A DNA stretch of 50,163 bases from a virus (lineage: Duplodnaviria > Caudoviricetes). Positions 3,001 through 43,499 of the stretch are shown here, in pieces. Made by a program: the position numbers and the translations under genes. Within the stretch, counting starts at the first letter, position 1, and each line of letters opens with the position of its first letter. The DNA lies in the IMG/VR virus record IMGVR_UViG_3300032335_001351, positions 1 through 50,163 of that record. One strand, written 5' to 3'. The notes beneath the pieces are model-generated. The model saw only the letters and a list, made by a program, of their open reading frames with translations. It ran no database searches and was not told where the DNA came from.

Positions 3001-6000
3001 GCTGCGATTGGCGTTGGCGCCATAGGTGGCACGCTGGACTGCCCAGTTGTCGTAGATGTCATAGTCAGCGGCTTCTTTGCCAAGGTTGGCTTGGCTAAAC
3101 AACTCGGCTGCCAACACTGTGCCTTTGCTGCCCAAGAATTGACGATACACGTTGACTTGACTGACGTCATTGAGGTTGAGCGCTGCTAGATACTGTCGTG
3201 GGCGGAAGCCAATTAGTCCATAGCTCAAGAGATCGTTGTCAACTTCAATATTGGCTGTGTTGATGTTGTAGCTATTGATCAACTGATTGGCCTTGTTGGC
3301 CAAGTTGGGCAGCAAGCCTAGTTCAATTTGACTGTAATCACTCTGTGTCCAGTCGTTGAAATTGAATGTGGTGCTGGGCTGTACAATCTTGAGTGCTGAC
3401 CAGAACACGTTCTTGTAGCGAACAATTTCACCTTTGCTGTAAGTGCGCAGACCAGTCCACTCTTCAACGTTGTCTTGATTGAGAATAAATCCTGGTGCGT
3501 TGACACTGCCATCCCAGTCGGTGCTGGTGACAGCCACAAGATTTAGTCGGCTTTGGCGAACTCCAGTCACGGGTTGATAAATCAAGTCACCAAACACACT
3601 TTGATTGTCAAGCACAATCATGTGTTCGTAAGTGGTGAATTTGAGATCAACATAGTTCAAGGTCTGGCCGCTGAGTGGTTGTGCTTGGAATTCGTAACCG
3701 TTGCGCACAATGTTGAGGTTGCGTGTGTTGAGTTCACGACGGTTTTGATCCAGCACAAGGTTTTCTATGGTCTGTGCTTGAATGCTGTCAACTTGTCCTT
3801 GAGTGCTGATCAATTTCAACCCATCAGATGTGGGGTTGAGGTTGATTAGCGCATTGTCATCCCAGCCTTGAATACTCCAATACAAAAACTCTGTGGCCAT
3901 ACGGTTCCAGTCCATGACGTAACCATTGGCTATGTTTTCAAACTTCATGCCTTGGCGGGTCAAAAGTTGTCCGTAGCTCAACAAGAAATCGCACACTGCT
4001 GCACGATCTGAGAAGATAAAACCATAGGGCACTTGTACCACTGTGTTGGTATAGACTGTGGGCACTTGAACTGACGCACCAGGTATGGCAATGGTTTGTA
4101 GCACGCCAGTGGTGCGGCTTTGCAAGATACTGAAATAAGGTTTGATGGTGCTGTAGCCATACACAGCATAGCCACCTGGAACTTGTTGCACCACTACACT
4201 GCTGTAGTTTACACTGCCGTAGGGTTGATTTTTGTACAGCAACAGTGCATAGCTTTCGTCGGGAATCAGCAGTGCACTGTTGGTAGAATTTGGACTGGAT
4301 TTTTCAGTGTAGATCTTGATGTATTGCTTGTCAGAAAACGACGCCATGCGGTAGACAAGACGCACGTCAAGATTCTGCAATGCCACGGTGAGATCTTCAG
4401 TGCTGTCTAGACCACTCTGGCGATTAAAATCTACAATCCAGTCAATGTAACTGGCTTTGCTGACTCCGTTGCCATAAACTTCAACTCCGTTGGCATCCAA
4501 ACGGTAGCGATTATTGTAGAGATATTGCTGGTATTCTAAGTTATAGCGATAGAGATCACGGTCAGCAAACAATGCGTAAAATTTGGCCGGGCGTGTCAAC
4601 GCCAGCAGTCGCATCACAGCAAATGGGTAGCTTGAGCTGTTCCACCAAGCAGCTTCAGTGGGACTGCCATCACCAAGGCTCCAACTCTTGCGGAAAGTAG
4701 TGGAGTCAAAATTGCCCATGACCGAGAGATACGGGCTCAGCAGCGCACCTTCGCTGCCAGTGGGAATAACTTTGGTTAGGCCAGGTCGGGCAAATTGTGG
4801 TAGGAAATATGCACCAGCAGGATCGTCAACTTTGCCTAGCTCTAGGTCATCCCACAACACAAGGTTGTCAGCAGTGTATGGTGCTGTGCCATAGCGTGTT
4901 TCCCACCAAGTGGGCTTTTCACTGAATCCCAGCATCTCCCAAGGTGTGATTTGGGGCTGTTCAGTGTCGTAGAAAAAGCGATTGATGCCACGCCAGGCGC
5001 CCAGCAACGGGCCATTGTCTAACTTGTTGCGACTGCTGCTGTAGTTAAATGTAAACTCGTTGTTGGCGTTGTACACTTGGTCACGGTACTGTAACTTGTT
5101 CCAGTTAACCCAGCTGAGAAAGTCCACGCTGAGAATGTTGGTGACTTCTTGATAGTCGTAGCCCGTGTCACGGAACTGACCAGGCATGACATCATATACT
5201 GTGAGTGGTACTGGGTTGCCATCTAGTTTGAGGTTGTTGTAGATACGGCGCTCAAATTCCAACAGCACCTCGTCTCGAATGTCACCAAACGCCTTGGTAA
5301 AGCTGCCGTCATGTCCTATAATGCCCAGTTCAGTGCCATTAGTGGTTTTGCGTTCAACTATTTCAGGCAGCCATGCCGGATACAGACCCAATTTGGTAGG
5401 AGTGTTGGGCACAAAGCTACCATAAGTGGCTGCATATTCTTGCAGTGTGAGCACATCGCCTAGAGACAAATTCACCAAAACAGTGATGCGTGGGCCGTCA
5501 GTTGCCACCACATAGTCACGTCCACGAATCAGCAACACATTGTTGAGATACACATTCATGCCAAGATAGTTGGCTGACTCATAGTCATACACTTGCACTG
5601 TGTCAAAAGTGTCTGTGGTAATAAAACTCACAGTGTAAGTGGTATTGGAGTACACAGCACCAGCCGGAATCATGTCACTCCAGTAGAAAGGCTGACTGTC
5701 TATTTTGCCTTCCACTAGGTTCTGGATGGCTGTGTCTAGAATCTGCGACGGAGTTTCAAAATAAATGGTTTGCTGGGTAACTGAGTCCAGCACTTGTGCT
5801 TTGAACTTTTCATACTCACGACTGTTGAAACTCAAAGCACCAAAAATGTTGTACTGCTCGCTGCGCATGAAATAGCCAGCCAGGGTCAGTGGGGAGCTTT
5901 GCTGCAAGATCAACTGTCCGTAGGGCACAATATTGCCTAGATCTCGAGAGTTGTTGGGGCCGTTGATTTTTCCACTCAACCCATTTAAGTTTTGGCAAAT

Positions 6001-9000
6001 AGTTTCGTAGTGCTGACGTACTGTGCCCAACGTAAAGTTGGGACTGTTGCCATTGAGTGGGTTACTTTGCAAATTAACTGGTACTTGATAGAATGCCACA
6101 TTGCTGGTTTGATCACTCAGCACAGCCACTTCAATCACAGTGCCAGGAACATAGTCTTGACTCAAGGTAATGGTTGTGGTGTTGTCACCGCGCTCAATAC
6201 TGTATTGAGTAGGATCAACAAACTGAGTACCCACAAATAGTCTTACCGGGGGCACCACAGTGCCTTCGCTTACTCTCACATCTAGTTTGAGAATACGAGA
6301 TGAGAATTCAAATTTAAATTGTTGGCGTTCCAGTGTGGGGGTGGCCGCAGTCTGCCAACCCAACTGTCGTCGATACACTGTGCGTGTGCTGTATTCACGA
6401 ACTGATCCTGAACTGATGTCCTTGGTCACGCTGACGTTGTTGTCAACATAGAGAAATGTGTCAACATAGAGATTGTTGTCAAACACAATGTCGCCAACGT
6501 TGTCAATGTTGAGATACTCTAGGGGAATTTGCAAAATTGGATCTAGAATTCCTGTTTCTGCTTGAGCATAAGAAAACAACTTGCTGCCAGCAAATGTTGT
6601 GCTTTGATACACTGATTCGTCGCCAAAACTTACACCGTTGGGATCATACACATTGTACAGCGGAGCTTGTTGAACATTGGTTTTTTGCTGTGCCTGTTCC
6701 CACTCGCCGTTGTTGAACCAAAATGTCACACCTTTGAGAGTATCGCCATCAAGGCACACTGTACTTTGATCCGGCAATACTTCGCCATCAGATGCCAGCG
6801 TTAAATTGATAATGGGCTGTGCAATGAGTGGGGGTACAGTGTCAGGTGTGACAAAATTCACTGTCCAAATTTTGTTGCGCACGCTGGCATCTTCGTCAGC
6901 GGCAAAAATCACTCGCGATCCATCAACAAAGGTGTAGCCGTCCACAGCATAGCTGGTGCTGCCTTCAATGTTGCTGAAGGCGTCAGTTTCTTCAAAGTCA
7001 ATGATGTCAACTGGTTGCTTGCCTTGGGTGCCCATGTTCCATAGGCGCAGACCTGGGCGGAATTCAATGATGGGACGCTTGGCTCGTTTGAGATTGTCGT
7101 AAACCACAGGTACATTGTTGTAGCTGGCTGTGGCTTGAATCACATCAATGTGAAACCAACGATTGCTGCGAGCCCAGGCATTGAGGTCTGGGCTGGCGCG
7201 GTCAACTGTGAGGTAATCTAATTCTTCAGGTACAGGCAGACTGCTGTCATTTTGTTCTTGAACGTATGTTTCAGGCGTGACAAAATTTGTGACTGGCAAC
7301 AATTCAATCGCAGTGCCTACTCCGCTCACGTAGTATTGCTTGTCTTTGTATGATGCTGGCTCAATATCGCCACGAAACACTACCTTGAGTCCGTTGGTAA
7401 ATGTTACTCCATTGGTAGAGGTATAGTTTTTCTTGCCAATGACTTCTTCAATAAACAGTGTAGTTTCTTGGGTTTGTTCAATCAGTCTGATGCGGCCAAA
7501 AATTTCTGGGTCAATGGCATCTTGATACCACAAAGTATCAAGAATAGCTGTGAGTGGAGGAATCTGTTCAAAGCGTCCTTCAGCTGTTTTGTACCATTGA
7601 GTGTTGCTGTACTGATCTCCGTAGGCAATAGAAAACTTGTTCAAAGCCGGGATATCAGCTACTTTGTTCAGCACTATGTACTCTACGCCAGCAAAGTTTT
7701 GATATTGGATTTGATAAACTTGATAGCGATCTCCCACAGGAATATCTGTGACTTGACTGAATGGCAAACTATCAAAACTGCCAGGCAAGCCGTTGTTGGC
7801 TAAACTCTGTACCAAAGGATCAAACAGTGTGGTCACTTGCCAGCCGCCAGTTTCGGCGTCAACGTTAGGATCCGTGAACACAATGGTTCGACCGTTGAGA
7901 TTGGTGGTTCCGTCAATGCCATTGTATTCTAGCAAGAACTGCGCCACAGGCTGGTTGTTGACTTGATCAAACTTCAGTGTAGACAAAATATCCACAGAAC
8001 CAAAATTGTTCAAGGTATAGTAAAAATTCTGTGCAGTCTTGGATGGCACATTGAACGTGACTGTGCCTAGATCCTCACCGTTGTTGATCACACCAAACAC
8101 ATCTCGACTGCTGATGTTGGGGGTTGAAGGTATGACTCCTGACACGCCTGGATTGGTCTGAATCCAAAAACCTGGACCTGTGCCCGGTGTACCATCAACA
8201 ATCTCAATCACGCCCTGTTGCCCGCTCTGTGTTTCACTCACATAGTACAGAGTGTCTGGCGCATCTTGTGGCACCACAAAGGTAATCTGGCCAGTGTTGC
8301 TACCGTTGCGAGTAACACCGTTGTTGTAGGCATTGCCACGACCAGTCACAGGCTGAGTCTTGATCCAAAATGGATAAATGCCAGTGAGATTGAGGTTAAA
8401 AATGTAGGTATTGCCACGTTGCAAAGTCAACGTGGGATTGATTACGCCGTCAATGGTGTAGTTAAATGTGCCATTGTTGCGTACTCGATAGTTCACAGTG
8501 GTCTTGGTATTCTGTGCCACCTGGAATGTGTAGTTGCCGCCTCGCAAGAGATCAATAGTGGGATTCTCGCCTGGCACACCCGAGAATGTGTAAACTCCGT
8601 TTTCGCGTGTGACTTCAAAGTTGGCCTGGGACGGTATTGTGGTGGCCATGACTTCCACAACATCAGGGCCGTTGGGCATCCAGAAGTATTGATTGAAGTT
8701 TACAAAGGTGTCGTAATTGACAAACGGATCCCAACTGTAGAACTCGCTGACATACAGTCGGTCTGGTCTGTTGCCTTCACCGCCTTGATAACTCACAGCA
8801 TCGTTCATGCCTGGATAGGTCATGACGTCTCTCACTGTGTCAGTGTCGGGCTTGATAATGGCCACAGCGGGTTCAAGCTGATAATCAGCGCGAGTCTTGT
8901 CAATCTCTACCACATAACGATCATTGGGGTTGACGCCAGGACCTACTTGGCGGCCAATGTAGCCTTGAGTCTGCTTGAATCTTGGCTCTTGTACCAGCTG

Positions 9001-9084
9001 ATCTAGCGTGGCTGCCAAAAATTGACGGTTAGCATCGGTTTGAAAGATCTCGGGTAAAAAATCAACGGAACGTACTTGAGCCAT
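1..9084 (-). CDS. Giant virion structural protein (>3,028 aa, 3' end truncated by the window), probable baseplate wedge/attachment protein with FG-GAP-like beta-propeller repeats
   Basis: ATG at 9084, 2 nt after the stop of the gp6-like gene, reads MAQVRSVDFLPEIFQTDANRQFLAATLDQLVQEP. Spot-checked segments in this frame are open down to base 1 (...SLFDNDTTDFDGAGTTFFSE). Its absence from the ORF track fits a frame with no stop. Repeats such as GFGTSVDFGNQTWAAAGAPG and RFGASVSITTDGRQFLIGAP occur in 60-2260. Confidence 0.9.
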   Translation of the reverse strand, partial: MAQVRSVDFLPEIFQTDANRQFLAATLDQLVQEPRFKQTQGYIGRQVGPGVNPNDRYVVEIDKTRADYQLEPAVAIIKPDTDTVRDVMTYPGMNDAVSYQGGEGNRPDRLYVSEFYSWDPFVNYDTFVNFNQYFWMPNGPDVVEVMATTIPSQANFEVTRENGVYTFSGVPGENPTIDLLRGGNYTFQVAQNTKTTVNYRVRNNGTFNYTIDGVINPTLTLQRGNTYIFNLNLTGIYPFWIKTQPVTGRGNAYNNGVTRNGSNTGQITFVVPQDAPDTLYYVSETQSGQQGVIEIVDGTPGTGPGFWIQTNPGVSGVIPSTPNISSRDVFGVINNGEDLGTVTFNVPSKTAQNFYYTLNNFGSVDILSTLKFDQVNNQPVAQFLLEYNGIDGTTNLNGRTIVFTDPNVDAETGGWQVTTLFDPLVQSLANNGLPGSFDSLPFSQVTDIPVGDRYQVYQIQYQNFAGVEYIVLNKVADIPALNKFSIAYGDQYSNTQWYKTAEGRFEQIPPLTAILDTLWYQDAIDPEIFGRIRLIEQTQETTLFIEEVIGKKNYTSTNGVTFTNGLKVVFRGDIEPASYKDKQYYVSGVGTAIELLPVTNFVTPETYVQEQNDSSLPVPEELDYLTVDRASPDLNAWARSNRWFHIDVIQATASYNNVPVVYDNLKRAKRPIIEFRPGLRLWNMGTQGKQPVDIIDFEETDAFSNIEGSTSYAVDGYTFVDGSRVIFAADEDASVRNKIWTVNFVTPDTVPPLIAQPIINLTLASDGEVLPDQSTVCLDGDTLKGVTFWFNNGEWEQAQQKTNVQQAPLYNVYDPNGVSFGDESVYQSTTFAGSKLFSYAQAETGILDPILQIPLEYLNIDNVGDIVFDNNLYVDTFLYVDNNVSVTKDISSGSVREYSTRTVYRRQLGWQTAATPTLERQQFKFEFSSRILKLDVRVSEGTVVPPVRLFVGTQFVDPTQYSIERGDNTTTITLSQDYVPGTVIEVAVLSDQTSNVAFYQVPVNLQSNPLNGNSPNFTLGTVRQHYETICQNLNGLSGKINGPNNSRDLGNIVPYGQLILQQSSPLTLAGYFMRSEQYNIFGALSFNSREYEKFKAQVLDSVTQQTIYFETPSQILDTAIQNLVEGKIDSQPFYWSDMIPAGAVYSNTTYTVSFITTDTFDTVQVYDYESANYLGMNVYLNNVLLIRGRDYVVATDGPRITVLVNLSLGDVLTLQEYAATYGSFVPNTPTKLGLYPAWLPEIVERKTTNGTELGIIGHDGSFTKAFGDIRDEVLLEFERRIYNNLKLDGNPVPLTVYDVMPGQFRDTGYDYQEVTNILSVDFLSWVNWNKLQYRDQVYNANNEFTFNYSSSRNKLDNGPLLGAWRGINRFFYDTEQPQITPWEMLGFSEKPTWWETRYGTAPYTADNLVLWDDLELGKVDDPAGAYFLPQFARPGLTKVIPTGSEGALLSPYLSVMGNFDSTTFRKSWSLGDGSPTEAAWWNSSSYPFAVMRLLALTRPAKFYALFADRDLYRYNLEYQQYLYNNRYRLDANGVEVYGNGVSKASYIDWIVDFNRQSGLDSTEDLTVALQNLDVRLVYRMASFSDKQYIKIYTEKSSPNSTNSALLIPDESYALLLYKNQPYGSVNYSSVVVQQVPGGYAVYGYSTIKPYFSILQSRTTGVLQTIAIPGASVQVPTVYTNTVVQVPYGFIFSDRAAVCDFLLSYGQLLTRQGMKFENIANGYVMDWNRMATEFLYWSIQGWDDNALINLNPTSDGLKLISTQGQVDSIQAQTIENLVLDQNRRELNTRNLNIVRNGYEFQAQPLSGQTLNYVDLKFTTYEHMIVLDNQSVFGDLIYQPVTGVRQSRLNLVAVTSTDWDGSVNAPGFILNQDNVEEWTGLRTYSKGEIVRYKNVFWSALKIVQPSTTFNFNDWTQSDYSQIELGLLPNLANKANQLINSYNINTANIEVDNDLLSYGLIGFRPRQYLAALNLNDVSQVNVYRQFLGSKGTVLAAELFSQANLGKEAADYDIYDNWAVQRATYGANANRSFFEMRLNRALLDANPSTVQVVDPQEPSQADQTVLLTEIWRKSYPITSPDILPTTTTLPTDIGLPTAGYVNLEDADITVFSLDNNDSLAANFDQIAVGTAIWVAKVNDYDWGIFRAQSVPGQIQHVCDNLDGTSRVIFSQPHDLVAGDKLIIRFFTDYINGVYDVLSVANINTVNIAYTFSGQQTQADGSGIGFTLQTMRVAQASDVLNLPYTLNINPGAKVWVDNNGNDRWTVLEKQEVFSDVTTLQPEQFTISEQYGTSVTQAQNRLAALVGSPAFSSGGSVANGAVYTYVKNYSDQYTPISPLPDGDALLTIEVTGTRGFGTSVDFGNQTWAAAGAPGSNGSTSVANTGYAAVIYRDPALGLPGVNPYTVWQLLTQPGTTPSASAGTGEFGASVAMSLDERWLCVGAPGLNQAHVYGRVDWQDQFVRVIASGTQTQFDIGDAIQIDAATQLTVSVDGQVQTLGSQWTINGAFDTVTLSTAPAAGSLVSIQRRNLTPLDSETYYDVTQSATSGSGVGAEFTITRVRGEVGQLSPDRGTVGATSLGSGYNVGNTITIAAASFGGGTSPANNITLTVTSVGAGGTLLDFTIAYTPPALASTFDIGSLLFTADNIYAFTVRVNDVIQRPNIDYTFNGGTGVLTFVTVPASGAVITVTAQGYFEYVATLTPPVSINSDARFGASVSITTDGRQFLIGAPYATVSSQTQAGIVYVYDRMVQKFIVSNAATTTYTVQGSVTEPVSVTVNGQFLINENNAVVGANNTFSVAGNNITIDRDFNVGDIIEIETNQISTLQTVGQYELAEFCNFGQAVDICLNNCSLYVGEPQSSAQIYKGGQVERWVNQSRVYGITTAQRSATTLTAGSDIRINDQLVSVPLSPNNTLTGLAAVINNTVPNVTATVINNVLTLSVLNRQAAELNNLLTVLPGSTATLWQDLEFNTFVWTQNIQSPRPTEFAEFGGALNIDDTANNLVVGASRGNQYLISLFDNDTTDFDGAGTTFFSE

Positions 9085-9086
9085 GT

Positions 9087-12000
9087 TTAGATTACTCCAC
9101 TACCAGGGGCAGTGCGAAGATTGGTGCTAGTCAATGCTTCAATCACTTCAATGTTGTCAATAGTGGCAGCATTGGCAAAAATTTCACTGGGTTCTGAGCG
9201 TATCTCGTAGAGGTCGCCAAAACTCTTTTGCGGATCTAGAGGTACCAACACTACGGAACTGATAATGGTACCTAGAGTGCGGTGCAGATATGCTGCTAGT
9301 TCGCTGAAGTAGAATGTGTCGCCAAAGTTCCACTTGTCAATAGAAAAATAATCATTCATGGCTGCAATTACCGAGCTCTTAATTTCACTGGTGCTGGCTG
9401 TGGATCCTTGCGCACGAATCACTTTGATTGTGGCACGAAGTTCTGTGGCGGCCTTGGCACCAAACAGTGGCTTAAAAAATACTGAGTTCAATACAATATT
9501 GTCAGAAATCATTTTGTAATTTTGCAAACCTTGATAGGCTGTGTTGAGTTCATCAATGGTGGGCATGGCAGGTTCTGGCACTGTGCCTGTGGTATCTCTA
9601 ATCCAATTTTGATAAGCAGTGTAATATTCCTGTGTGACCACATAGAGATCAATGATGTTGGTGGTGCCTGGGTCAATTCTATTGGTAAGTGGCGCATTGT
9701 GACGATATTGGTAGTACAGCGCCTGACGTCCAGTACGGGCAATCCACTCAGTGGTCAGAACCAAGGTGCGAACTCCAGTTGCATCAATCAAAAGCTCGTA
9801 GAATGCGCCAGGGTTATTGACCTGACTGGGGTTTTGATTGTAGGCATAAAAGATCTGTCCAGGAGTATACTCAGTTTTGACCACTTCAATAGCATTTAAA
9901 GTAGCATACTCGCTGTTGACACGATCAGGTTCAACCAAGAGATATCGCTGCAAATTGTCAAAGTCCACAGTGCGTTGCAAGAAAATCAGCTTTTCGTTAG
10001 GGTTGGTATCTGGGTCCACGATCTCGTTAAAGAAGTCAGGGTTGTCTGGTATACCATCATTGTCGCTGTCTCGATAGCTCACCAATACTTGGAAATCATC
10101 TACATAACCGTCGCTTTCCACAGGCTGACCAATGATAGTGGTGTAGATGTCTGTGCCCAAGCTGGCAGCACTGTCAGGTTGTGAATTCATGGCCAACACA
10201 TTCACAAAGTCTTTGATCACTGTACCTGTGCGGCTATCGTACACTTGCTGATCATCATAGAAGAAGAATCGTGTCTGCAACACTGAACCAAAATAGTAGG
10301 CCAATCCACGGAAGGTCACAGTGTAGTTTTGATTCTGTACCACAAATTGTGCCATCCAGCTGGCATCAAGATTGGCGCCTGATGTATTGCCAGCGTACTG
10401 CTGACTCCAGGTGGCGTTGGCTGCAAGATTTTGCTGTGTAATGATGTACCAAGTATAGGGTGTACCAGTCACGCTGCCATCGTTGTCGTAGCCCAGTCCA
10501 AAGTTGCGGAACAGCACAATTTGTTCAGCAATTTGTTGTTCAATGCTCAATGGCAAATCTGTCACAAACAACGGAATAACAGTGTCAACAATGGCACCAG
10601 TGGGCACAAAATTGTTGATTGTGACTGGACCTTGACCGTTGGCTAGATTACCCAATCCGTTGTTGTAACCGGTATCAATCACTCGCAATGGCGATGCCCA
10701 AATTTCCAGTTTTTCATTGGCTCGTGTGGGCGTACCTTGTTGCAAACGATTGTTGCTGTCAAAATAATAGCCAGTGGGAGCCACAAACTTGATCAAGCTG
10801 TTGACCACAGCATAGTAGAAAGGATTTGTGGTGCTGAGTGTGGGGCCAATAGGAATGGGTGTTCCAGCAGCATTGCGGAAATAGCCCGTGGTTTCATTGG
10901 CCAGCGTGGTGCTTTGGTACCAGGTACTACCAGCTGTGATACCAGTGTTCACTGATTTGCGCGGAAAGTTTTCATAGTAAAACTGCAACATAGTGGGCAA
11001 CAACAATTGAGGTTGTACTTGATTGGTGATGAAGTCAGCAATCTCGTTGCGGTTGGTCCATGAGAACAACAGTGTGGGCAACACGTTGTTGCGCCAGATA
11101 GCACCATCGCTGCCAAAAGTGTTGGTTGAACTGTATTTGCCAGTATTGTCCACTAGATCAAGATAACGACTGGTGCCAATTGACGCACGGTTCAAGGCCT
11201 TGCTCTTGAGTATGGAATTGTAAGTGGTGTATGGGAAAAGGTTGTAGTCTTCGCCGTTGACCATGCGATTCTGTGTGTAGTAGCGAGCCGGAGCACGCTG
11301 TTTGATTTGAGCAATGGGTTCGCGAGCCTGACTGTTGCTCACAGGCTGCGTAATGCCACACACAAAAGTAATGGTTTCTAGGTTGCCTGAGCGACTGATG
11401 TAGCTGATGGGCAGAGTCACAGCCTGCATTTCTTCAGGGTTAATGATGTACTGCAAACCGTTGGAGGCACGAACATAGGCACGATAAGTGCCCACAGGAA
11501 TTTCACTAAACACACCGTCACCAAACACCATGGTGATTTGATCATTGGCTCGACTGGTCACAGTATAGATAGGGCGCAGAGTGGTGCCCAATTGTTCAGC
11601 TGCTGCTGAGTAAATGTTTTCTTGGTACAACCACTCACGTGCAACATTGCCCACGTTGTCTAGCTGAAACAACCAACGATCTTCGTTGTTGATCCCTTCA
11701 ATGTTGATATCCACAGTGCGGTTGGCAATGCGTTCAGCCAAGTTGAAATCTTGATTCTGCAATACACCTTGTTTGAACATAAAAAAGTAGCCAGTGTTGG
11801 CACTTTGGAAGCCCAACTGATCATTGCGGTACAGAATGTTGAAGGGTTGGTTGGGTTGTGGGGCTGGCTCGTACAAATAATCACGTCCCACTGCGGTTGA
11901 AGTCATGGCCTCAAACGGCATTGAGATTCCGTCCACTGTGGCGTTGTAGGGAATCACTGGCAGATAACCTGGCACAAGATTGACAGCATACTCATCAGTG

Positions 12001-24210: not shown

Positions 24211-24935
24211 AAATCTACTTCAATGGTTGCAGCCACACTTTTGGCGATGATCTTGCTGATCGAGCTCATGCTTGGCCGGCTCGTGTTGCTGCGGCGTTGC
24301 AGAGTAAATTTGTCAACGATGCTGTGAGTGGCGGCACCAACGACAGGATCTTGTATAGAACTGTTAAGTTTGCCCAGCAATTTGACTTTGTATGCATAGC
24401 CTGGACCTACACTTCACGATTTACTCGATATAGATCTGACAACAACCATGATGTTAACTTCAACGCTCAAATGACTCATAGCATGTACGGTCAGGCCACT
24501 GAGTTTCGCGACTATGGTCGATTGCACTATACTTTTTGGCACAACGAACTTTACAATTTTAAAATTTGGCTACAAAATGTTGTGCTGTTGCAAAGTTATC
24601 TAGACAGCATCAACCGGCCTTTTGTTATGATTAGTGCAGATCACAATCATATTAATCGGTGGGCTTCAGATCGTGATCAGTTCAATTCCAGTGTAAAATC
24701 GTTAATAAACTTTGATCTGATGTCAGACCAGCAGTTAGATGACGAACACTGTGAAATTCAACGTTTACTGGATCAAGTTGATCGACAACGTTATTATGGT
24801 TTTGGTCATTGGTGGATAACTCAGCTGCATGCGCACTATCCAGTTGGTAACACATCACATCTCCAAAAAGCTGGACACCAAGCCATAGCAGACTATCTAT
24901 TATCACATGATTCATTTCAAAACGCTAACTGTTAA
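24207..24935 (+). CDS. Hypothetical protein, SGNH-hydrolase-like
   Basis: KIYFNGCSHTFG, VNDAVSGGTNDRI and C-terminal HLQKAGHQAIADYL resemble SGNH blocks. Confidence 0.65.
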   Translation: MKIYFNGCSHTFGDDLADRAHAWPARVAAALQSKFVNDAVSGGTNDRILYRTVKFAQQFDFVCIAWTYTSRFTRYRSDNNHDVNFNAQMTHSMYGQATEFRDYGRLHYTFWHNELYNFKIWLQNVVLLQSYLDSINRPFVMISADHNHINRWASDRDQFNSSVKSLINFDLMSDQQLDDEHCEIQRLLDQVDRQRYYGFGHWWITQLHAHYPVGNTSHLQKAGHQAIADYLLSHDSFQNANC

Positions 24936-26670
24936 AAATTTCATGAGTGTGGGCAATGCCACACAAGGAGTGCACTTTGATCGTCAAGATCTAACCTTGG
25001 TCTTGGGCGAAAACCTTGACCTAGGCGGTGACGGCAGTCGCAACGGCACAGGTAAAACTACTATCATCAATGCACTGAGTTATGCTTTGTATGGCAATGC
25101 ACTTAGCAACATTCGCAAAGACAATCTAGTAAATAAAACCAATGCCAAGCACATGTTGGTAAGTTTAGATTTTGCAGTGGGCGATCGAGAATATCGAATC
25201 GAGCGTGGGCGCAAACCTAACGTGCTGCGATTTTTTGTCAATAACGAACAACAAGCTGTAACTGACGAAGCTCAGGGCGACAGCCGCGAAACTCAGGATG
25301 CTATTGAACGTATATTGGGCATGAGTCACGACATGTTCAAGCATGTGTTGGCCTTAAACACTTATACTGAGCCGTTCTTGAGTCTTAAGGCCAACGAGCA
25401 GCGAACCATAATTGAACAACTGCTGGGCATTACTCAACTCAGTGAACGTGCCGATCGCATCAAAGAACTCAATCGTGAAACCAAAGATGGCATCACTCAA
25501 GAAGAAATGCGCATCCGGGCTGTGCAAGAAGCCAACCGACGCATTGAAGAACAGATTGAAAGCCTTCGAAAACGTCAGACCTTGTGGCTAAAAAAGCGTG
25601 ATGATGATGTGGCTCAGTTTGCCCAGGCCATTGTGGATCTTGAACATGTAAGAATTGAGGTTGAAATACAAGCGCATCGAGATCTCGAAGTATATCATGC
25701 CAAGAAAAAATCACGCGATGACATCAATCTTTGGTTGCGCAAAATTGAAAACGAAGATTCTCGACTTCAAAAGCAAAAACAACAGCTTGATCGAGATCTG
25801 CAAGAAATCAAGCAACACCGATGTTTTGCTTGCGGAACTGAAATACACGACAACAGCCTTGACACGGTGCGAACTGAGCGTGAAAAAACTCTACAGGACA
25901 TTGCACTGCAATTGCTGGCCAATGATACTCAGCGCACTGAGCACCAAACTGCACTGGCAGAGTTAGGCGAGCTGGGCTCTGCTCCCAAGGTGTTCTATGA
26001 CAGCTTGGAAGATGCGCTGAATCACAAAAATACTGTGGACAGTTTGCAACGCAACATGGAGAGTAGAGCCTCTGACGCCGACCCTTATGGTGAACAGATT
26101 GAAGACATGCAAGGACAAGCCTTGCAGGTTGTGAGCTATGACGTCATCAACGATCTCACCAAGCTGCAAGAGCATCAAGAATTCTTGCTCAAGTTGCTGA
26201 CCAGTAAAGATAGTTTTGTGCGCAAGAAGATCATTGATCAGAATCTCAGCTATCTCAACAGCAGACTTACTCACTACTTGGATAGAATTGGTTTGCCACA
26301 CACAGTAAAGTTTCAAAACGATCTCTCTGTCAGCATTGAAGAGCTGGGTCGCGAACTAGACTTTGACAACCTCAGTCGAGGTGAACGCACTAGACTGATT
26401 CTCAGTATGAGTTGGGCATTCAGAGATGTGTGGGAGAGCTTGTATCATCCCATCAATCTCTTGTTCATTGATGAACTCATGGACAACGGGCTGGACACAC
26501 AAGGTGTAGAAAGTGGGTTGGCTTTGCTGAAAAAGATGAGTCGTGAACGACACAAGTCAATTTGGTTAGTAAGTCATCGTGACGAGCTGGCCGGTCGAGT
26601 CAACAACATTCTCAAGGTTGTAAAAGAACATGGATTTACTAGTTACAGCACCGATGTTGACACAGCGTAA
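24907..26670 (+). CDS. gp46: Recombination ATPase subunit (gp46/Rad50/SbcC)
   Basis: Walker A NGTGKTT, coiled coil with zinc hook CFAC, signature LSRGE, Walker B LLFIDE, H-loop VSH. Confidence 0.95.
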   Translation: MIHFKTLTVKNFMSVGNATQGVHFDRQDLTLVLGENLDLGGDGSRNGTGKTTIINALSYALYGNALSNIRKDNLVNKTNAKHMLVSLDFAVGDREYRIERGRKPNVLRFFVNNEQQAVTDEAQGDSRETQDAIERILGMSHDMFKHVLALNTYTEPFLSLKANEQRTIIEQLLGITQLSERADRIKELNRETKDGITQEEMRIRAVQEANRRIEEQIESLRKRQTLWLKKRDDDVAQFAQAIVDLEHVRIEVEIQAHRDLEVYHAKKKSRDDINLWLRKIENEDSRLQKQKQQLDRDLQEIKQHRCFACGTEIHDNSLDTVRTEREKTLQDIALQLLANDTQRTEHQTALAELGELGSAPKVFYDSLEDALNHKNTVDSLQRNMESRASDADPYGEQIEDMQGQALQVVSYDVINDLTKLQEHQEFLLKLLTSKDSFVRKKIIDQNLSYLNSRLTHYLDRIGLPHTVKFQNDLSVSIEELGRELDFDNLSRGERTRLILSMSWAFRDVWESLYHPINLLFIDELMDNGLDTQGVESGLALLKKMSRERHKSIWLVSHRDELAGRVNNILKVVKEHGFTSYSTDVDTA

Positions 26671-27517: not shown

Positions 27518-27563
27518 ACATTTTATATCACTCACCAGCAGCAAGGACTAATTATCATGTACT

Positions 27564-27992
27564 ATGTCATGGTACTATCAAGGCAACATCATTGACACCT
27601 TGCCCGAAGATTGTGTGGGATTTGTGTATCTAATCACAAACCTCACCACAGGTCGCATGTACATAGGCAAAAAACTCGCAAAATTCTCTAAGACTACGCA
27701 ACGTACTGTCAAACTCAAGAACGGCAACAAACGCAAGAAAAAAATCCGCACCAAAGTGGATAGCGACTGGCGCAACTACTATGGGTCTAGCCCCGAGCTC
27801 ACAAAGGATGTGGAACTGTTAGGCAAAGAAAACTTCCAACGCGAAATCTTATTCTATTGCAAAAGCAAAGCCGAATGTTCATATATTGAAGCTAGAGAAC
27901 AATTTTCCCGACGTGTATTAGAATCAGCAGACTACTATAACGGGCACATTCAAGTGCGTGTACATGGCAGTCACATCATAGGCAAACTTTAA
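27564..27992 (+). CDS. Minimal GIY-YIG nuclease-family protein
   Basis: GFVYLITNLTTGRMYIGKK, YYGSS, conserved-type Glu (YIEAREQ) and YYN. It has a basic insertion KLKNGNKRKKKIRTK and no C-terminal DNA-binding domain. Confidence 0.85.
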   Translation: MSWYYQGNIIDTLPEDCVGFVYLITNLTTGRMYIGKKLAKFSKTTQRTVKLKNGNKRKKKIRTKVDSDWRNYYGSSPELTKDVELLGKENFQREILFYCKSKAECSYIEAREQFSRRVLESADYYNGHIQVRVHGSHIIGKL

Positions 27993-27994
27993 GC

Positions 27995-28421
27995 GTTCAC
28001 GACTCGCACAGGTCAATTTCATGTGCCTAGAGACAACCGGATAACAACGGGGACGGAAGACTCACTGCGCTGGTGAGCACTCAGCAACTATCCTTGACCG
28101 GACGACGATCGCAAGCATGCCTGCGGTTTTGCTGTTTGAACAGAATTTTATTAGGCGAAAAGACGCACGAGTGATCGTGCACGTTTGGGATTCACGCTAG
28201 CATGTGATTCACAAACCGCCGTTGTGACAAAGACTGGGATGGAGGTATCGGACAACCGCCTCTGCTAAACACCCTAATGCTAGTGACTGTGCTACTCGGA
28301 TGATGCCAATCAATCTTTGCCCTGAGCGGGCAAAGTGTGACCGCTTAATCTGGATGATAGCTTAGACGCTTCGCGATGCATATTAGAAAAAGAGTTGACG
28401 AGCAAAGCGAGTCAACAGAAC
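27995..28421 (+). ncRNA. Candidate large structured ncRNA (~430 nt) with several pseudoknots
   Basis: The only long ORF-free gap in the window. It holds many stems, a GNRA-capped hairpin (28165-80) and three loop-mediated pairings. G-U pairs favour the + strand. Boundaries are approximate. Confidence 0.7.
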
Positions 28422-28425
28422 TTCG

Positions 28426-29214
28426 TTAGAAGTTCTCAATCAGTGCTTGTGCAAATTGTTTAGCATATAGGGAATTTGATTTTGGTCCTGGATGACGACC
28501 ATCAGAATTTACATCAAACTGAAGTTGTCGCATTGATTCATAGAGATTCAACCATGCAGTTTGGTTTACATTCCCAACGGCTTGATATTGCTGGTGCATT
28601 TTGTCATAGAGTTTGAGTATTTCATTGTCGTCTCGATTGACTGCATTCAACAATTTTTGTGTGTAGTTAGTGAGTTGGTCTGGCAAAGTTGGTTTTTCCA
28701 ACTTAACAAAAAACTCTTGATCCCATGGACACATGCCATTGACAAATGCCAATTTGGTGTTTGTCAATCTTGCTAGCTGTTGTATAGAGTTGGAGTATTT
28801 AAGTATCTGTACAATTTCGTATTGGTCATGCGACAATGCAATAAATCGATCTTTGATGTCATTGAGATACTGGGTTGAATAGCTGATGTTGTTTAGCTTA
28901 TGGCCGTGGCCAGTAACTGGTCCAGCATTAAAACATTGTGAAGTTGTGTATAATTCAAAACCAACTTCAATTTCATATCTAGGAAACCCAGTCCACTGCA
29001 CAATGGCATACTCTACAGAATATGTCAGCAATGCACTTACAGTGTCTTGAAAAATCCCAGCATTGCTTCTGCCCCCAAGACTGACATTAATCAAGTTAGT
29101 GTGTGAGAAAAGTCTCTGATGTAACTGATTGACCCACAGTGCAGGGTCTTGTTTTCCTAGCTCAAGGCCTGACCCAGCTGTGAGCGAGCACCCTGAAAAC
29201 AGTGTGTAGCTCAT
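28426..29214 (-). CDS. Hypothetical protein, SGNH-hydrolase-like (resembles 24207-24935)
   Basis: TLFSGCSLTAG, INVSLGGRSNAGI and DGRHPGPKSN. The start at 29214 overlaps the upstream stop (ATGA). Confidence 0.7.
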   Translation of the reverse strand: MSYTLFSGCSLTAGSGLELGKQDPALWVNQLHQRLFSHTNLINVSLGGRSNAGIFQDTVSALLTYSVEYAIVQWTGFPRYEIEVGFELYTTSQCFNAGPVTGHGHKLNNISYSTQYLNDIKDRFIALSHDQYEIVQILKYSNSIQQLARLTNTKLAFVNGMCPWDQEFFVKLEKPTLPDQLTNYTQKLLNAVNRDDNEILKLYDKMHQQYQAVGNVNQTAWLNLYESMRQLQFDVNSDGRHPGPKSNSLYAKQFAQALIENF

Positions 29215-29546
29215 AGATTTTGATCTGGCCAATCTCTAAACAAGGCATGTTGGATGTTGCCTGACACAAACTGGTTGAATGATCGATGTTTGTCTTCCAG
29301 TTCGCCCTTGAGTGGGGCAACTCGACGAAAGGCCGAATCCATTTGACCCATGTCACGAAACTCCATGAGAATCATCCATTCTGGCATGTCGGGAATGGAT
29401 CGAAAACCCATTTTGCAGCGAGTGATTCTGTAGCTGTGCATTTTGTCCTCGCTCACCAAGTGATCAAAAAAGCTCTTCATGTTGTTGACCCAGTCAACAT
29501 CAGAGATGTCGCCCTCTTTGTCAGCCCAAATTGTATAGATATCCAT
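29211..29546 (-). CDS. Small conserved protein, DUF6614-like
   Basis: MDIYTIW...YRITRCKMGF...MEFRDMGQMDSAF...ALFRDWPD recalls DUF6614 (from memory, unverified). Confidence 0.6.
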   Translation of the reverse strand: MDIYTIWADKEGDISDVDWVNNMKSFFDHLVSEDKMHSYRITRCKMGFRSIPDMPEWMILMEFRDMGQMDSAFRRVAPLKGELEDKHRSFNQFVSGNIQHALFRDWPDQNL

Positions 29547-29980
29547 TATTTTACAGGTCCCAATATTTCAAAACCCTGCAAGTCTAGCATGTAGGGTTCA
29601 ACCGCTTCAAAATACATCCAGCGGTAACCGCGATCACGATAGATCGCGCACTCGTTCTCAATACTGCGTATGCCCAGTCTCAATCGGGAATTACGATAGT
29701 CCCAGGCAAAGTGATCACTCAAGATGTTTTCGTTGTCCCAGATCTGGTACATGCTCCAGGCCACCAGCCGATCTTGATCATGATAGCCAATGATTTCAGT
29801 GCCGGCTGCTGTGAGTCTGCCAGCAATCATGGGCATCACACTTTGAAAATGCTTGTGCACACAGTAGTCTCGATACACACGTTGCACGTCATTGACAGGC
29901 ACAGGATCCAGCAGTTGCCAAGGCACCTCGCTCACATACTGTGTTTGAGCAAGATCAATGCGACCAAACTGCCAGCTCAT
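29546..29980 (-). CDS. GNAT-fold protein resembling the C-terminal domain of Arg/Leu-tRNA-protein transferase (ATE/Bpt)
   Basis: GYHDQDRLVAWS...FAWDYRNSRLRLGIRSIENECAIYRDRGYRWMYF parallels the ATE_C pattern YDP...LG..SI..EI......G..Y.YLG. Confidence 0.55.
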   Translation of the reverse strand: MSWQFGRIDLAQTQYVSEVPWQLLDPVPVNDVQRVYRDYCVHKHFQSVMPMIAGRLTAAGTEIIGYHDQDRLVAWSMYQIWDNENILSDHFAWDYRNSRLRLGIRSIENECAIYRDRGYRWMYFEAVEPYMLDLQGFEILGPVK

Positions 29981-30480
29981 GTTCGTGGATCCTGGCGATG
30001 TTGAAATAGTGATTCAAGATAGTCCTTGGGCCAAGTGTCATAAAATCCCTGACGAGCCATTAGCCGTGCTTTGTGGTCAAGGTCAGCAAGTCCCTGCACC
30101 AAGGCCAGGGCATAGGTGCCTTGATTCATGATCACACCGTTGACATTTTCAACGTCTGTGGGATGGTCTTCTAGTGCCAAAAGATCATTGGTCAGTAAAA
30201 ATTCTTGATTGGCTTGGTCAATGGCATGACTCAACTGTGCATGCGAGCACTGCACAGGATCATACACATAGATCCAGACTTCGCGACCTTGCAGGCCAAG
30301 GTCAGCACGAATTTTCAAATCTTGCAAAGGATCAGTGCCCAGCACAATGGAATAGCTCTGTTTGAGTCGTGCTGACCGTGCATAGGGACAAGGTGGGAAT
30401 CCGCCCAGCACTGGGTGAGGAACCTCCAAGAAGTTGGTGATCCAAGATTCAATGTCACGAGTTACAGTAGCAATGTCCAT
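29977..30480 (-). CDS. Hypothetical protein, DUF1415-like
   Basis: WITNFLEVPHPVLGGFPPCPYAR and EDHP; coupled to its neighbours by TAATG/ATGA overlaps. Confidence 0.55.
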   Translation of the reverse strand: MDIATVTRDIESWITNFLEVPHPVLGGFPPCPYARSARLKQSYSIVLGTDPLQDLKIRADLGLQGREVWIYVYDPVQCSHAQLSHAIDQANQEFLLTNDLLALEDHPTDVENVNGVIMNQGTYALALVQGLADLDHKARLMARQGFYDTWPKDYLESLFQHRQDPRT

Positions 30481-30710
30481 TAGAAGAAAGGCAGTCCAGA
30501 TTTTTTGGCAGTTTCAAGATTTTCTTTTACAACATCGTTGATCAAGCGGCGCTCAGTGGTGCTCATGTTCATGACATCCACATAGCTGGCACCGCCACGC
30601 ATGTACCAGCTTTGCTTGAGAGCCTCCTGACGTATGCCATTGCATTCCTGTTCCAGCTGTTCAATCCAGCCCGAGATGCCGTCAGCGTCCAGGGTCAGGA
30701 GGCGGGCCCG
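30480..30710 (-). CDS. -1 frame extension of the gp26-like gene (76 codons)
   Basis: Reads RARLLTLDADGISGWIEQLEQECNGIRQEALKQSWYMRGGASYVDVMNMSTTERRLINDVVKENLETAKKSGLPFF*. It fills the gap exactly, has no ATG/GTG/TTG before MRGG and begins at the slippery T TTT TTC. Confidence 0.75.
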   Translation of the reverse strand, partial: RARLLTLDADGISGWIEQLEQECNGIRQEALKQSWYMRGGASYVDVMNMSTTERRLINDVVKENLETAKKSGLPFF

Positions 30711-42647: not shown

Positions 42648-42737
42648 TAAATACTTGTCAACGCAATTCGGCGTTTTATGCGGATACCACCGCGTAGTGG
42701 CTAGAACCCACATTGGACTTCTTTAAGGAGAAAACAA
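42648..42737 (+). promoter_or_regulatory. Late promoter plus structured 5' leader with three hairpins
   Basis: TAAATA at 42648-53; stems AACGC/GCGTT, TATGCGG/CCGCGTA and GTGG/CCAC; SD AAGGAG. Confidence 0.55.
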
Positions 42738-43499
42738 ATGGGACGTCCTCTCAAAATACAAAAAACTAACAACAGCATTCCTACCGACGTTGGCTATCCC
42801 AACTTTGGCAGCTTGACTGCACCTGTGGTCAATTCAGCTGACACTCTCAGCAGCACTGAATTCTTGGGCGTGGTGGGTGGTGCAACCCCTACTGATACTC
42901 CCAGTGCTACTTTCCCCAGAATTGAAGTAATTGTAAACATTGCCAACCCTTCAGGCACAGGTCTGGGCGTGGCAACCGGTTACATCATCCGTCAAAAGGG
43001 TTCACACAAGTATCTCGTGGGCGACACTACCGGTGTCACTGACGGTAGCTTCTTGGTGGGACAGGCCTACCAAGTCACTGCTTTAGGAACAACCAATTGG
43101 CAAGCCATTGGTGCCGAAGCTGACATTGGCGTAGGCGGTGTTTTCACTGCCACTGGTGCCAACGGCGGCGGTAACGGAACTGCCAACAGCGTGGGCATCT
43201 GTGTGTTGGACGACGATGCAACCCCAGCAGCTGGCTTGATGGCCATTACCTTTACCAACACAGATTCTACTGCAACCACAGTGAGTAAGTTAACCAACAA
43301 ATTCCTGTTGGATTGGACTGGCGGCAGCGACTATGCAGCTACCAGCGTAGTGGGTGACAAGCGTTACTCAGCCAACTTCTTCACAGACGAAGGCACTGTG
43401 ATCAAGTCAGGTACCACTGGCGCTGCCAACACTGGCACAGTGGCCAGCGGTCAACAGAATCTGCTTGACTTGGCCATTGTTGACAACGTTACATCTTGA
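42738..43499 (+). CDS. Putative virion structural protein
   Basis: 253 aa, Thr/Gly-rich; begins MGRPLK; contains GYIIRQKGSHKYLV; strong SD. Confidence 0.75.
   Translation: MGRPLKIQKTNNSIPTDVGYPNFGSLTAPVVNSADTLSSTEFLGVVGGATPTDTPSATFPRIEVIVNIANPSGTGLGVATGYIIRQKGSHKYLVGDTTGVTDGSFLVGQAYQVTALGTTNWQAIGAEADIGVGGVFTATGANGGGNGTANSVGICVLDDDATPAAGLMAITFTNTDSTATTVSKLTNKFLLDWTGGSDYAATSVVGDKRYSANFFTDEGTVIKSGTTGAANTGTVASGQQNLLDLAIVDNVTS

Follow-up and report, generated by a model that had tools for sequence, protein, structure and literature searches.

A conserved RNA-like element of T4-like phages that extends the Polynucleobacter-1 motif, carries a self-matching twin box and may act as an RNA-primed replication origin

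The Polynucleobacter-1 motif (Rfam RF01718) was reported by Weinberg et al. in 2010 (PMC2864571), where the rows of the supplementary alignment run to approximately 280 nt and the table marks the motif as probably cis-regulatory, no function being given there. Two described modes of R-loop initiation, together with a class of small DNA hairpins, provide the remaining points of comparison. For ColE1, the interaction of an rG stretch with a dC stretch is described as essential for R-loop formation (PMC4412123). Phage T4 is described as using several R-loop origins, with middle promoters that are shut off late, and its R-loop formation as being independent of specific sequences, the T4 origins sharing no motif (PMC3016281). 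DNA mini-hairpins are reported at the initiation (priming) sites of G4, St-1, alpha3 and RSF1010, such hairpins being very stable as DNA and much less so as RNA (PMC13037366). A literature search returned no paper on the replication origins of the jumbo phages considered below.

The window, that is, the whole 50,163-nt stretch of DNA that was analyzed, is part of a T4-like phage contig with gp46/47, late sigma factor, portal and capsid genes. An earlier sequence-only reading had singled out a long non-coding gap at positions 27993 to 28425, and this gap, at 433 nt, is indeed the longest between long open reading frames (ORFs) of the window, the next measuring 214, 140 and 132 nt. It is preceded by a GIY-YIG nuclease gene (27564 to 27992, plus strand) and followed by a convergent ORF, in a slot that is kept between the block of the SbcC-like gp46 gene (24907 to 26670, plus strand) and the convergent gp26 block. 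The apparent gaps in the first 1 to 9 kb of the window represent a single stop-free minus-strand frame of 3030 codons which runs off the end; this giant gene (1 to 9090, minus strand; at least 3030 stop-free codons off the left end) adjoins a baseplate wedge gene. Elsewhere in the window, an Rfam freshwater-2 motif (RF02980, 78 bits; 42659 to 42740, plus strand) ends where the ORF at 42738 has its start codon, a cassette of DUF6614/ATE_C-like genes occupies 29211 to 30480 (minus strand), and the 214-nt gap (30481 to 30694) follows a baseplate hub gene.

All 16 of the stem, loop and pairing strings that the sequence-only reading had quoted and that were checked are present where it had placed them. 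The single sequence gave fold z-scores of -0.25 (plus strand) and -0.32 (minus strand), with 17 long-range perfect 6-mer complements against 20.2 in shuffles and 4 7-mer complements against 4.9; pairings drawn from one sequence are thus at chance level, and it falls to homologues to decide between them. From approximately 1,400 viral stretches harboring a relative of the GIY-YIG gene, 80 were taken, to which 119 were added by RNA motif, and the 168 full-length copies (412 to 502 nt) were reduced to 108 below 93% identity, with a mean identity of 67%. Conservation extends to about position 28437 and collapses beyond it, and 90 columns of the alignment are near-invariant. Against a tree-based null, which was a home-made tree simulation and not R-scape, 50 column pairs reached E <= 1 in the 108 homologues, 36 of these being at least 80% canonical, and in a 30-sequence subset the supported helices displayed 326 cells changed on both sides, compared to 92 in shuffles. 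Judged from this alignment, the conserved element in the gap is real, measuring approximately 435 nt and displaying strong covariation. It is single-copy in five of five large aquatic phage records, and a blastn search of the gap against cultured phages returned one chance match.

The 5' domain of the element (28001 to 28137, plus strand) is Polynucleobacter-1. The RF01718 covariance model matched over its whole length (positions 1 to 141) with 89.7 bits (E 6.5e-18), well above the curated cut-off of 37, and the conserved stems and the 3' extension with its pseudoknot, as in the 2010 alignment, are present here. The novelty implied by the sequence-only reading therefore fails for the 5' two-thirds, on the Rfam search which that reading had itself put forward as the means of overturning it. 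The second structure line of the alignment in PMC2864571 contains a UUAGCGU/ACGCU pseudoknot, corresponding to 28197-203/28277-83 here, and about two-thirds of the element is, going by that supplement, already described in 2010, beyond what the Rfam model displays. The element is accordingly a member of Polynucleobacter-1, of which it is the full-length form. The structure lines of the model and of the 2010 alignment are without the twin-box domain, the tail, the 5' pseudoknot and the GUUGU/ACAAC pseudoknot, all of which are present here; in addition, the twin-box domain recurs behind other 5' domains that have no Rfam match. What is new here is the twin-box domain of the 3' third, the tail and these two pseudoknots, the 5' two-thirds having been known since 2010 as far as the alignment displays them. 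Besides RF01718, the Rfam search of the gap gave nothing of weight, and the same search of 12 divergent phage, 13 mixed and 5 cultured loci gave no new family, with RF01718 in locus L277 only. RF01718 is absent from the searched supplementary files of PMC10690425, a study of more than 10,000 candidate viral RNAs.

With regard to the fold, the earlier proposal of a large pseudoknotted structured element is borne out by the homologues, which preserve a conserved and covarying structure. Covariation supports the GCACA/TGTGC stem, the CTCAC/GTGAG stem, the CAGCAA/TTGCTG stem together with the enclosed stem at 28107-28128, and the hairpins at 28165-80 and 28183-216, while GAGGT/GCCTC and CTTTGCCC/GGGCAAAG retain their pairing and display little covariation. 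Among the five long-range pairings that had been proposed, the pseudoknot 28197-203/28277-83 is the sole survivor, again with covariation support. The remaining four fall away: the canonical fraction in homologues is 0.57 for the kissing loop GGTCAA/TTGACC, 0.61 for TGAGCGG/CCGCTTA, 0.70 for ACAACGG/CCGTTGT and 0.58 for the end-closing GACTCGC/GCGAGTC, and jointly they are paired in 58.9% of cells, compared to 58.2% in shuffles. In place of the kissing loop there is, by the alignment, an H-type pseudoknot at the 5' end (28001 to 28014, plus strand), in which GACT (28001-04) pairs with the loop GGTC (28011-14); it is 0.92 canonical, with 92.5% of cells paired in the 30-sequence subset, and its pair 28002:28013 covaries between GC and AU. 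The middle domain (28165 to 28283, plus strand) comprises the two hairpins already named, the helices 28236-38/28272-74 and 28242-46/28258-62, and two pseudoknots, of which 28197-203/28277-83 is in the 2010 supplement and 28221-25/28252-56 is absent from it. Three pseudoknots consequently stand, two of them not among the original proposals. In the middle-domain helices G-U far exceeds A-C, and this excess holds for the majority of helices as far as 28335 but is absent from the final two, indicating that the body is folded on the plus strand and that the tail is strand-neutral. Comparison of the homologues shows a covarying three-pseudoknot fold on the plus strand, from 28001 to about 28340. 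Within the known 5' domain, positions 28091 and 28103 display strong U-C/C-U covariation (59 versus 27 weighted sequences) and likely form a non-canonical pair.

Adjoining the middle domain are two segments of similar layout, box 1 (28283 to 28306, plus strand; GTGAC-N6-ACTC followed by GGATGAT at 28298-304) and box 2 (28337 to 28360, plus strand; GTGAC-N6-ATCT followed by GGATGAT at 28352-58), between which lies a hairpin (28315 to 28335, plus strand) that is 0.90 canonical with a variable loop. Box 1 is predicted to supply the RNA strand of an RNA:DNA anchor, for which the template strand of box 2 would be the partner. The sequence-only reading had reported a YYGGATRA motif occurring three times, and it is present at 28037, 28296 and 28350; the first occurrence is not conserved, while the other two represent the conserved twin box, so that the repeated motif was seen and its key role, along with the DNA-hairpin appearance of the last 70 nt or so, was missed. 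The twin 7-mers lie 47 to 58 nt apart and covary like with like, with three strong signals (28298=28352, 28302=28356 and 28304=28358), and all four like pairs (G, C, T and A) were seen at one twin position. The 7-mer is the same in both boxes in 97 of the 97 regex-matched sequences among the 108, and its twins are identical at 174 of 176 loci that are non-redundant by protein, the exceptions being one chance parse and one true discordance. When the 7-mer was omitted from the search pattern, the twins were identical at all 107 profile-confirmed loci among 119, whereas 11 chance matches to this pattern shared only 0 to 5 of the 7 positions; further sets obtained with the 7-mer omitted gave identity in 51/53 and 118/120 cases. 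These sets overlap one another and cannot be taken as independent. Discordant twins, with A/T at the last position of the 7-mer, occur at two phage loci.

More than 10 variants of the 7-mer were observed, including GGATGAT, AGATAAT, ACATGAA, GCATAAT, GTATGAA, GAATGAT, AGCAGAA and GTCGAAA, the last being found at L252 (2500-2650), in a phage without a GIY-YIG gene nearby and approximately 0.8 kb before terminase genes. On the protein tree, three positions of the box changed in 36, 16 and 19 steps, respectively, with a coupling of 1.0 as opposed to 0.25 to 0.38 for controls. No third covarying column was found in the RNA, the gene or the upstream DNA, no complementary copy of the 7-mer at a fixed offset, and no long match to the box elsewhere in three near-complete phage genomes. 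The comparison shows that the twin 7-mer must match between its copies, yet can be almost any sequence.

If the RNA of box 1 were to lie on the template strand of box 2, the combinations G/A and T/C (box 1/box 2) would form wobble pairs (rG:dT and rU:dG), and the reverse combinations would thus be mismatches. Beside the twin box, position +7 is G/A in 133 cases versus no A/G, position +8 is T/C in 24 (19 tree steps) versus one C/T, and the mini-box mismatches follow the same direction (G/A 9 versus 0; T/C 12 versus 0). Opposing instances are the flank positions -1 and -3, which are fixed as C/T, position -6 (C/T 38 versus T/C 0), the first base of the mini-box, which is A/G in 2 of 106, and one Rhodobacteraceae copy with A/G. 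Most mismatches beside the twin box would therefore fit pairing of RNA box 1 with template DNA at box 2, and we judge it probable from these patterns that such pairing takes place during polymerase passage.

The tail contains a GCGAAGC mini-hairpin on the bottom strand (28368 to 28374, minus strand; present in 72/108 homologues), followed by an A+T-rich spacer (28375 to 28393) which is of variable length in the alignments and possibly serves as an unwinding element. The middle hairpin (28394 to 28416, plus strand; GTTGAC-GAGC-loop-GCGA-GTCAAC) has a covarying stem and, according to the loop census, loops of the GNNA or GNA type, of which 43/108 are GNRA and 24 are not. It is followed by a terminal 8-bp hairpin (28417 to 28436, plus strand), which overlaps the convergent ORF at its stop (28426), is 97.1% paired with seven of eight pairs changing on both sides, and has a cGNAg (66/108) or cGNNAg (28/108) loop. 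The tail also gives a good fold when treated as RNA (z -3.3), and folding energy cannot here separate DNA from RNA. The tail is, as comparison of the homologous sequences shows, built of GNA/GNNA mini-hairpins on both strands, obeying the rules of DNA mini-hairpins.

The likely source of a transcript through the element is a late-promoter-like motif, CTAATTA (27548 to 27554, plus strand), located just before the GIY-YIG start. The sequence TAA[AGC]TA occurs within 70 nt of that start in 53/87 homologues, and many of the structural genes in the window have similar promoter-like motifs ahead of them. The product of the GIY-YIG gene is a single-domain, SegE-like nuclease (PF19835, E 1e-34; phrog_447; the latter carries the label "NAD synthetase", yet equals the GIY-YIG domain). 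Its structure model has a pLDDT of 82 and as best fold match, a weak one, the I-TevI catalytic domain; a fold search with the model gave no match at E <= 0.001, and a PDB sequence search gave chance matches only. Family match and modeled fold are common to this protein and SegE/I-TevI, from which it differs in standing alone, its 142 aa including a long basic beta-hairpin, and in its slot, which in relatives is occupied by EndoVII or RusA-like resolvases. A PD-(D/E)xK resolvase-like gene can substitute for it: among 491 redundant loci the slot contains the GIY-YIG gene in 315, the resolvase-like gene in 12 and both in none, and the resolvase-like gene is absent from three near-complete GIY genomes. 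Between gp46 and gp26, a resolvase is annotated in cultured PA5oct, RaK2 and BF, and an endonuclease in EJP2; a search for EndoVII gave no match, its positive control being equally silent. Comparison of loci shows the GIY-YIG gene to be, on gene content, a replaceable neighbor of the element, and its product is probably a junction-resolving enzyme which shares the operon and is not a dedicated partner. Being mutually exclusive with the resolvase-like gene in this slot, the phrog_447 protein may serve these phages as their junction resolvase. At several loci, the RNA is immediately preceded by a small QSregVF_b (PF12843) ORF (for example L005, 2430-2678, and L126, 1002-1214).

Beyond the aquatic phages, a search of GTDB with the twin-box pattern gave 21 loci, comprising 8 in Rhodobacteraceae, 8 on phage-like contigs in bins, 3 chance matches inside ORFs and 2 others (L217 and L220). 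Rhodobacteraceae integrase islands harbor the twin-box domain without a GIY-YIG gene; this version matched 4 of 351 genomes of the family, one of them weakly, and gave no match in plasmid records. Its twins match in 38/39 cases, under a search pattern which fixed all but one position. In these islands (L205-L210, L215, L224 and L582-L621), the twin-box RNA measures approximately 400 nt, is present in at most three copies per genome and belongs to no Rfam family. The islands are possibly satellites of T4-like phages.

Profiles of the element gave no match in cultured enterobacterial jumbo phages or in PA5oct, and the look-alikes of these phages are linked to it by layout only, namely, a twin, a hairpin between its copies, an A+T-rich stretch, GAG..CGA and a cGAAg tail. 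Matches to the EJP2 gap were found in 62 phage records; almost all of the 40 records listed have four to five such places each, and in the four genomes with copies placed, the copies are co-oriented and 43 to 112 kb apart. The enterobacterial repeat (L634-L663; EJP2, BF and three IMG/VR records) is a non-coding sequence of 600 to 700 nt, without annotation in most of the records, with four to five copies per jumbo genome. A YGTCAR twin was read in 21 of 22 look-alike copies (one by eye), the other remaining unparsed; the last position is AA in 10, GG in 9, GA in 2 and AG in none, and the first is CC in 20 and TT in 1. The five EJP2 copies read A/A, A/A, G/G, G/G and G/A at the last position. 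Copies within one genome bear different, internally matched twins; this points to a requirement in cis and would be left unaccounted for by a trans factor common to the copies. For PA5oct, Table 1 of PMC7318152 lists, from RNA-seq, ncRNA004 at 246116-246734 with 0.08, 0.03 and 0.02% of phage reads, highest early. Its end coincides with the last base of the second copy of a CATAAG twin, whose copies are separated by a hairpin, and a tail that is common to the gp46-side gap follows 52 nt later; this twin is a 6-mer and a single case, one of three such repeats in a 320-nt stretch. The gp46-side gap of PA5oct has no clear twin, and RaK2 and Atu_ph07 have no element at the gp46 locus.

On the evidence of sequence and layout, we lean towards the view that giant T4-like phages use the element as a replication origin that is RNA-primed in the manner of ColE1. 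Starting at the promoter ahead of the nuclease gene, transcription would proceed into the element, whose folded RNA would present box 1 for pairing with the template at box 2, over approximately 10 bp plus the GTGAC mini-helix. The persistent hybrid would displace the top strand over the A+T-rich spacer, the DNA mini-hairpins would fold and thereby mark the site for helicase/primase or restart proteins, and the RNA end near box 2 would prime leading-strand synthesis. The late-type promoter, as opposed to the middle promoters of T4, weighs against the origin reading. No strand-skew switch was found at the element in three of three near-complete genomes, as is expected for one-way or multi-origin replication, and this result lends the origin reading no support. 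Along most of these three genomes (G001 to G003), the GC skew at fourfold sites tends to be more negative in majority-strand genes than in minority-strand genes, a tendency that may stem from one-way replication or from gene class. Also weighing against the origin reading, a search for RNase H families gave no match in five of five genomes, for which reason the host enzyme or the phage 5'-3' exonuclease, the latter being present in all five, would be needed. More tentative, and held at somewhat less than even credence, is the broader proposal that an ornate primer-RNA family with a freely changeable 7-nt self-guide starts the replication of giant T4-like phages, as a module common to aquatic jumbo phages, to enterobacterial and Pseudomonas jumbo phages (there as several spaced origins) and to Rhodobacteraceae integrative elements, the last perhaps being satellites by which it is borrowed.

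The same self-pairing R-loop might, alternatively, mark packaging initiation, recombination or junction cleavage, or end transcription, a reading we deem unlikely although it would account for the late-type promoter, for the junction-resolvase-type gene that occupies the slot in every lineage examined, for the distant copy about 0.8 kb before terminase genes and for the Rhodobacteraceae islands, in which ATAAATA lies upstream in 28/31 cases, as a satellite might have it. The tail, however, matches the mini-hairpins of priming sites, contig ends show no clear pile-up (8/248 within 100 nt downstream of box 2, compared to 8 in the upstream bin), and PA5oct ncRNA004, going by the read fractions in PMC7318152, is highest early. 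Less probable still is a free structured RNA or ribonucleoprotein whose twin boxes form parallel like-with-like pairs or offer two sites to one protein or RNA partner. The rich covarying fold over approximately 340 nt is in keeping with it, as are the capacity of the tail to fold as RNA, the GNRA middle loops (43/108) and the precedent of other ornate phage RNAs, which are described as free RNAs (10.1101/2024.12.08.627333). It is opposed by the one-way G/A and T/C bias, and the differing paralogues within one genome argue against a shared trans partner. The occurrence of all four like pairs (G, C, T and A) is, moreover, hard to fit into one parallel pair geometry, and these pairs were seen at a single position.

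Two further readings seem to us highly improbable. That the RNA guides or scaffolds the GIY-YIG nuclease, in the manner of OMEGA or TIGR systems, is suggested by the tight linkage in the close clade, with an RNA match in 77/80 gene-defined loci and the gene upstream in 80/80 RNA-defined loci with room (119 examined), and by the lack of a separate DNA-binding domain in the protein. The gene is, however, missing at 10 loci where the element has 3 kb of room, it is replaced by the resolvase-like gene, whole ORFs can insert between it and the element, and cultured relatives (at most 50% identity) display no such gap in the four annotated of five fetched, the fifth being without annotation. No GIY-YIG residue tracks the box, the best column reaching 0.83 on six changes only and the medians (0.15 to 0.29) resembling those of controls, and no variable guide with a distant target was found in nearby DNA and three phage genomes. 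An obligate nuclease-RNA pair of this type is largely refuted by the gene-less loci and the replacement by a resolvase-like gene. Direct repeats bound the templates of telomerase- and DRT2-like reverse transcriptases, and this arrangement, along with the size, the pseudoknots and the 90 near-invariant columns, would be compatible with a ribozyme or with a reverse transcriptase template that permits jumps between the twin boxes. The mismatch direction is nevertheless opposite to that of repeat synthesis, the element is not inside a gene, and no RVT_1 match was found in five of five genomes (a control matched in 3/14). The likeness to large ribozymes that had been suggested finds nothing to point to it, and the accompanying statement that the element is not tmRNA, RNase P or a group I/II intron agrees with the absence of a match to any such family model or to known ribozymes.

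Should the origin reading be correct, an orphan Rfam motif, Polynucleobacter-1, would gain a function, the origins of these phages would be defined, and the ColE1 primer principle would be found to operate in large phages too, by way of an anchor that is flexible in sequence. RNA:DNA pairing in cis can, moreover, be flagged by like-for-like covariation in RNA alignments, a signal disregarded by ordinary structure screens, and the look-alikes in cultured coliphages and PA5oct render the twin-box reading approachable without the uncultured phage.

Compared to the described systems, the three tail hairpins follow the same loop rules as the mini-hairpin DNA GCGNNAGC/GCGNAGC of G4, St-1, alpha3 and RSF1010 ssiA, as given in PMC13037366; those sites are, as described there, primase sites on single-stranded templates without the upstream structured RNA that is present here. 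With T4 oriF and oriG, as described in PMC3016281, the element would have in common a promoter, a transcript and an A+T-rich unwinding region, as well as several origins per genome, and differs from that description in its conserved ornate RNA and matched twin behind a late-type promoter. In ColE1, the long folded transcript RNA II pairs through its upstream part with the template near the origin, so that a word occurs twice on the top strand, as it does here at the sequence level, and a hairpin motif lies downstream on the displaced strand, to which the tail of the element may correspond. In the ColE1 record, runs of G6 are found at 928 and 1175, and its only GAGC-N3-4-GCGA sequence (GAGC-GTA-GCGA), which resembles the middle hairpin, lies 157 nt after the second run; ColE1 is also described as having a primosome signal that is exposed after primer extension (PMC3167613). 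The ColE1 G runs are 247 nt apart, whereas here a mixed and changeable 7-mer recurs at 47 to 58 nt, no sequence homology between RNA II and the element is shown, and the host here is a phage of 250 to 350 kb. Rfam having returned no match besides RF01718, the element is not placed among ColE1 replicons. We propose, by analogy, that the element probably acts in the manner of ColE1 RNA II, although it is itself no ColE1 replicon.
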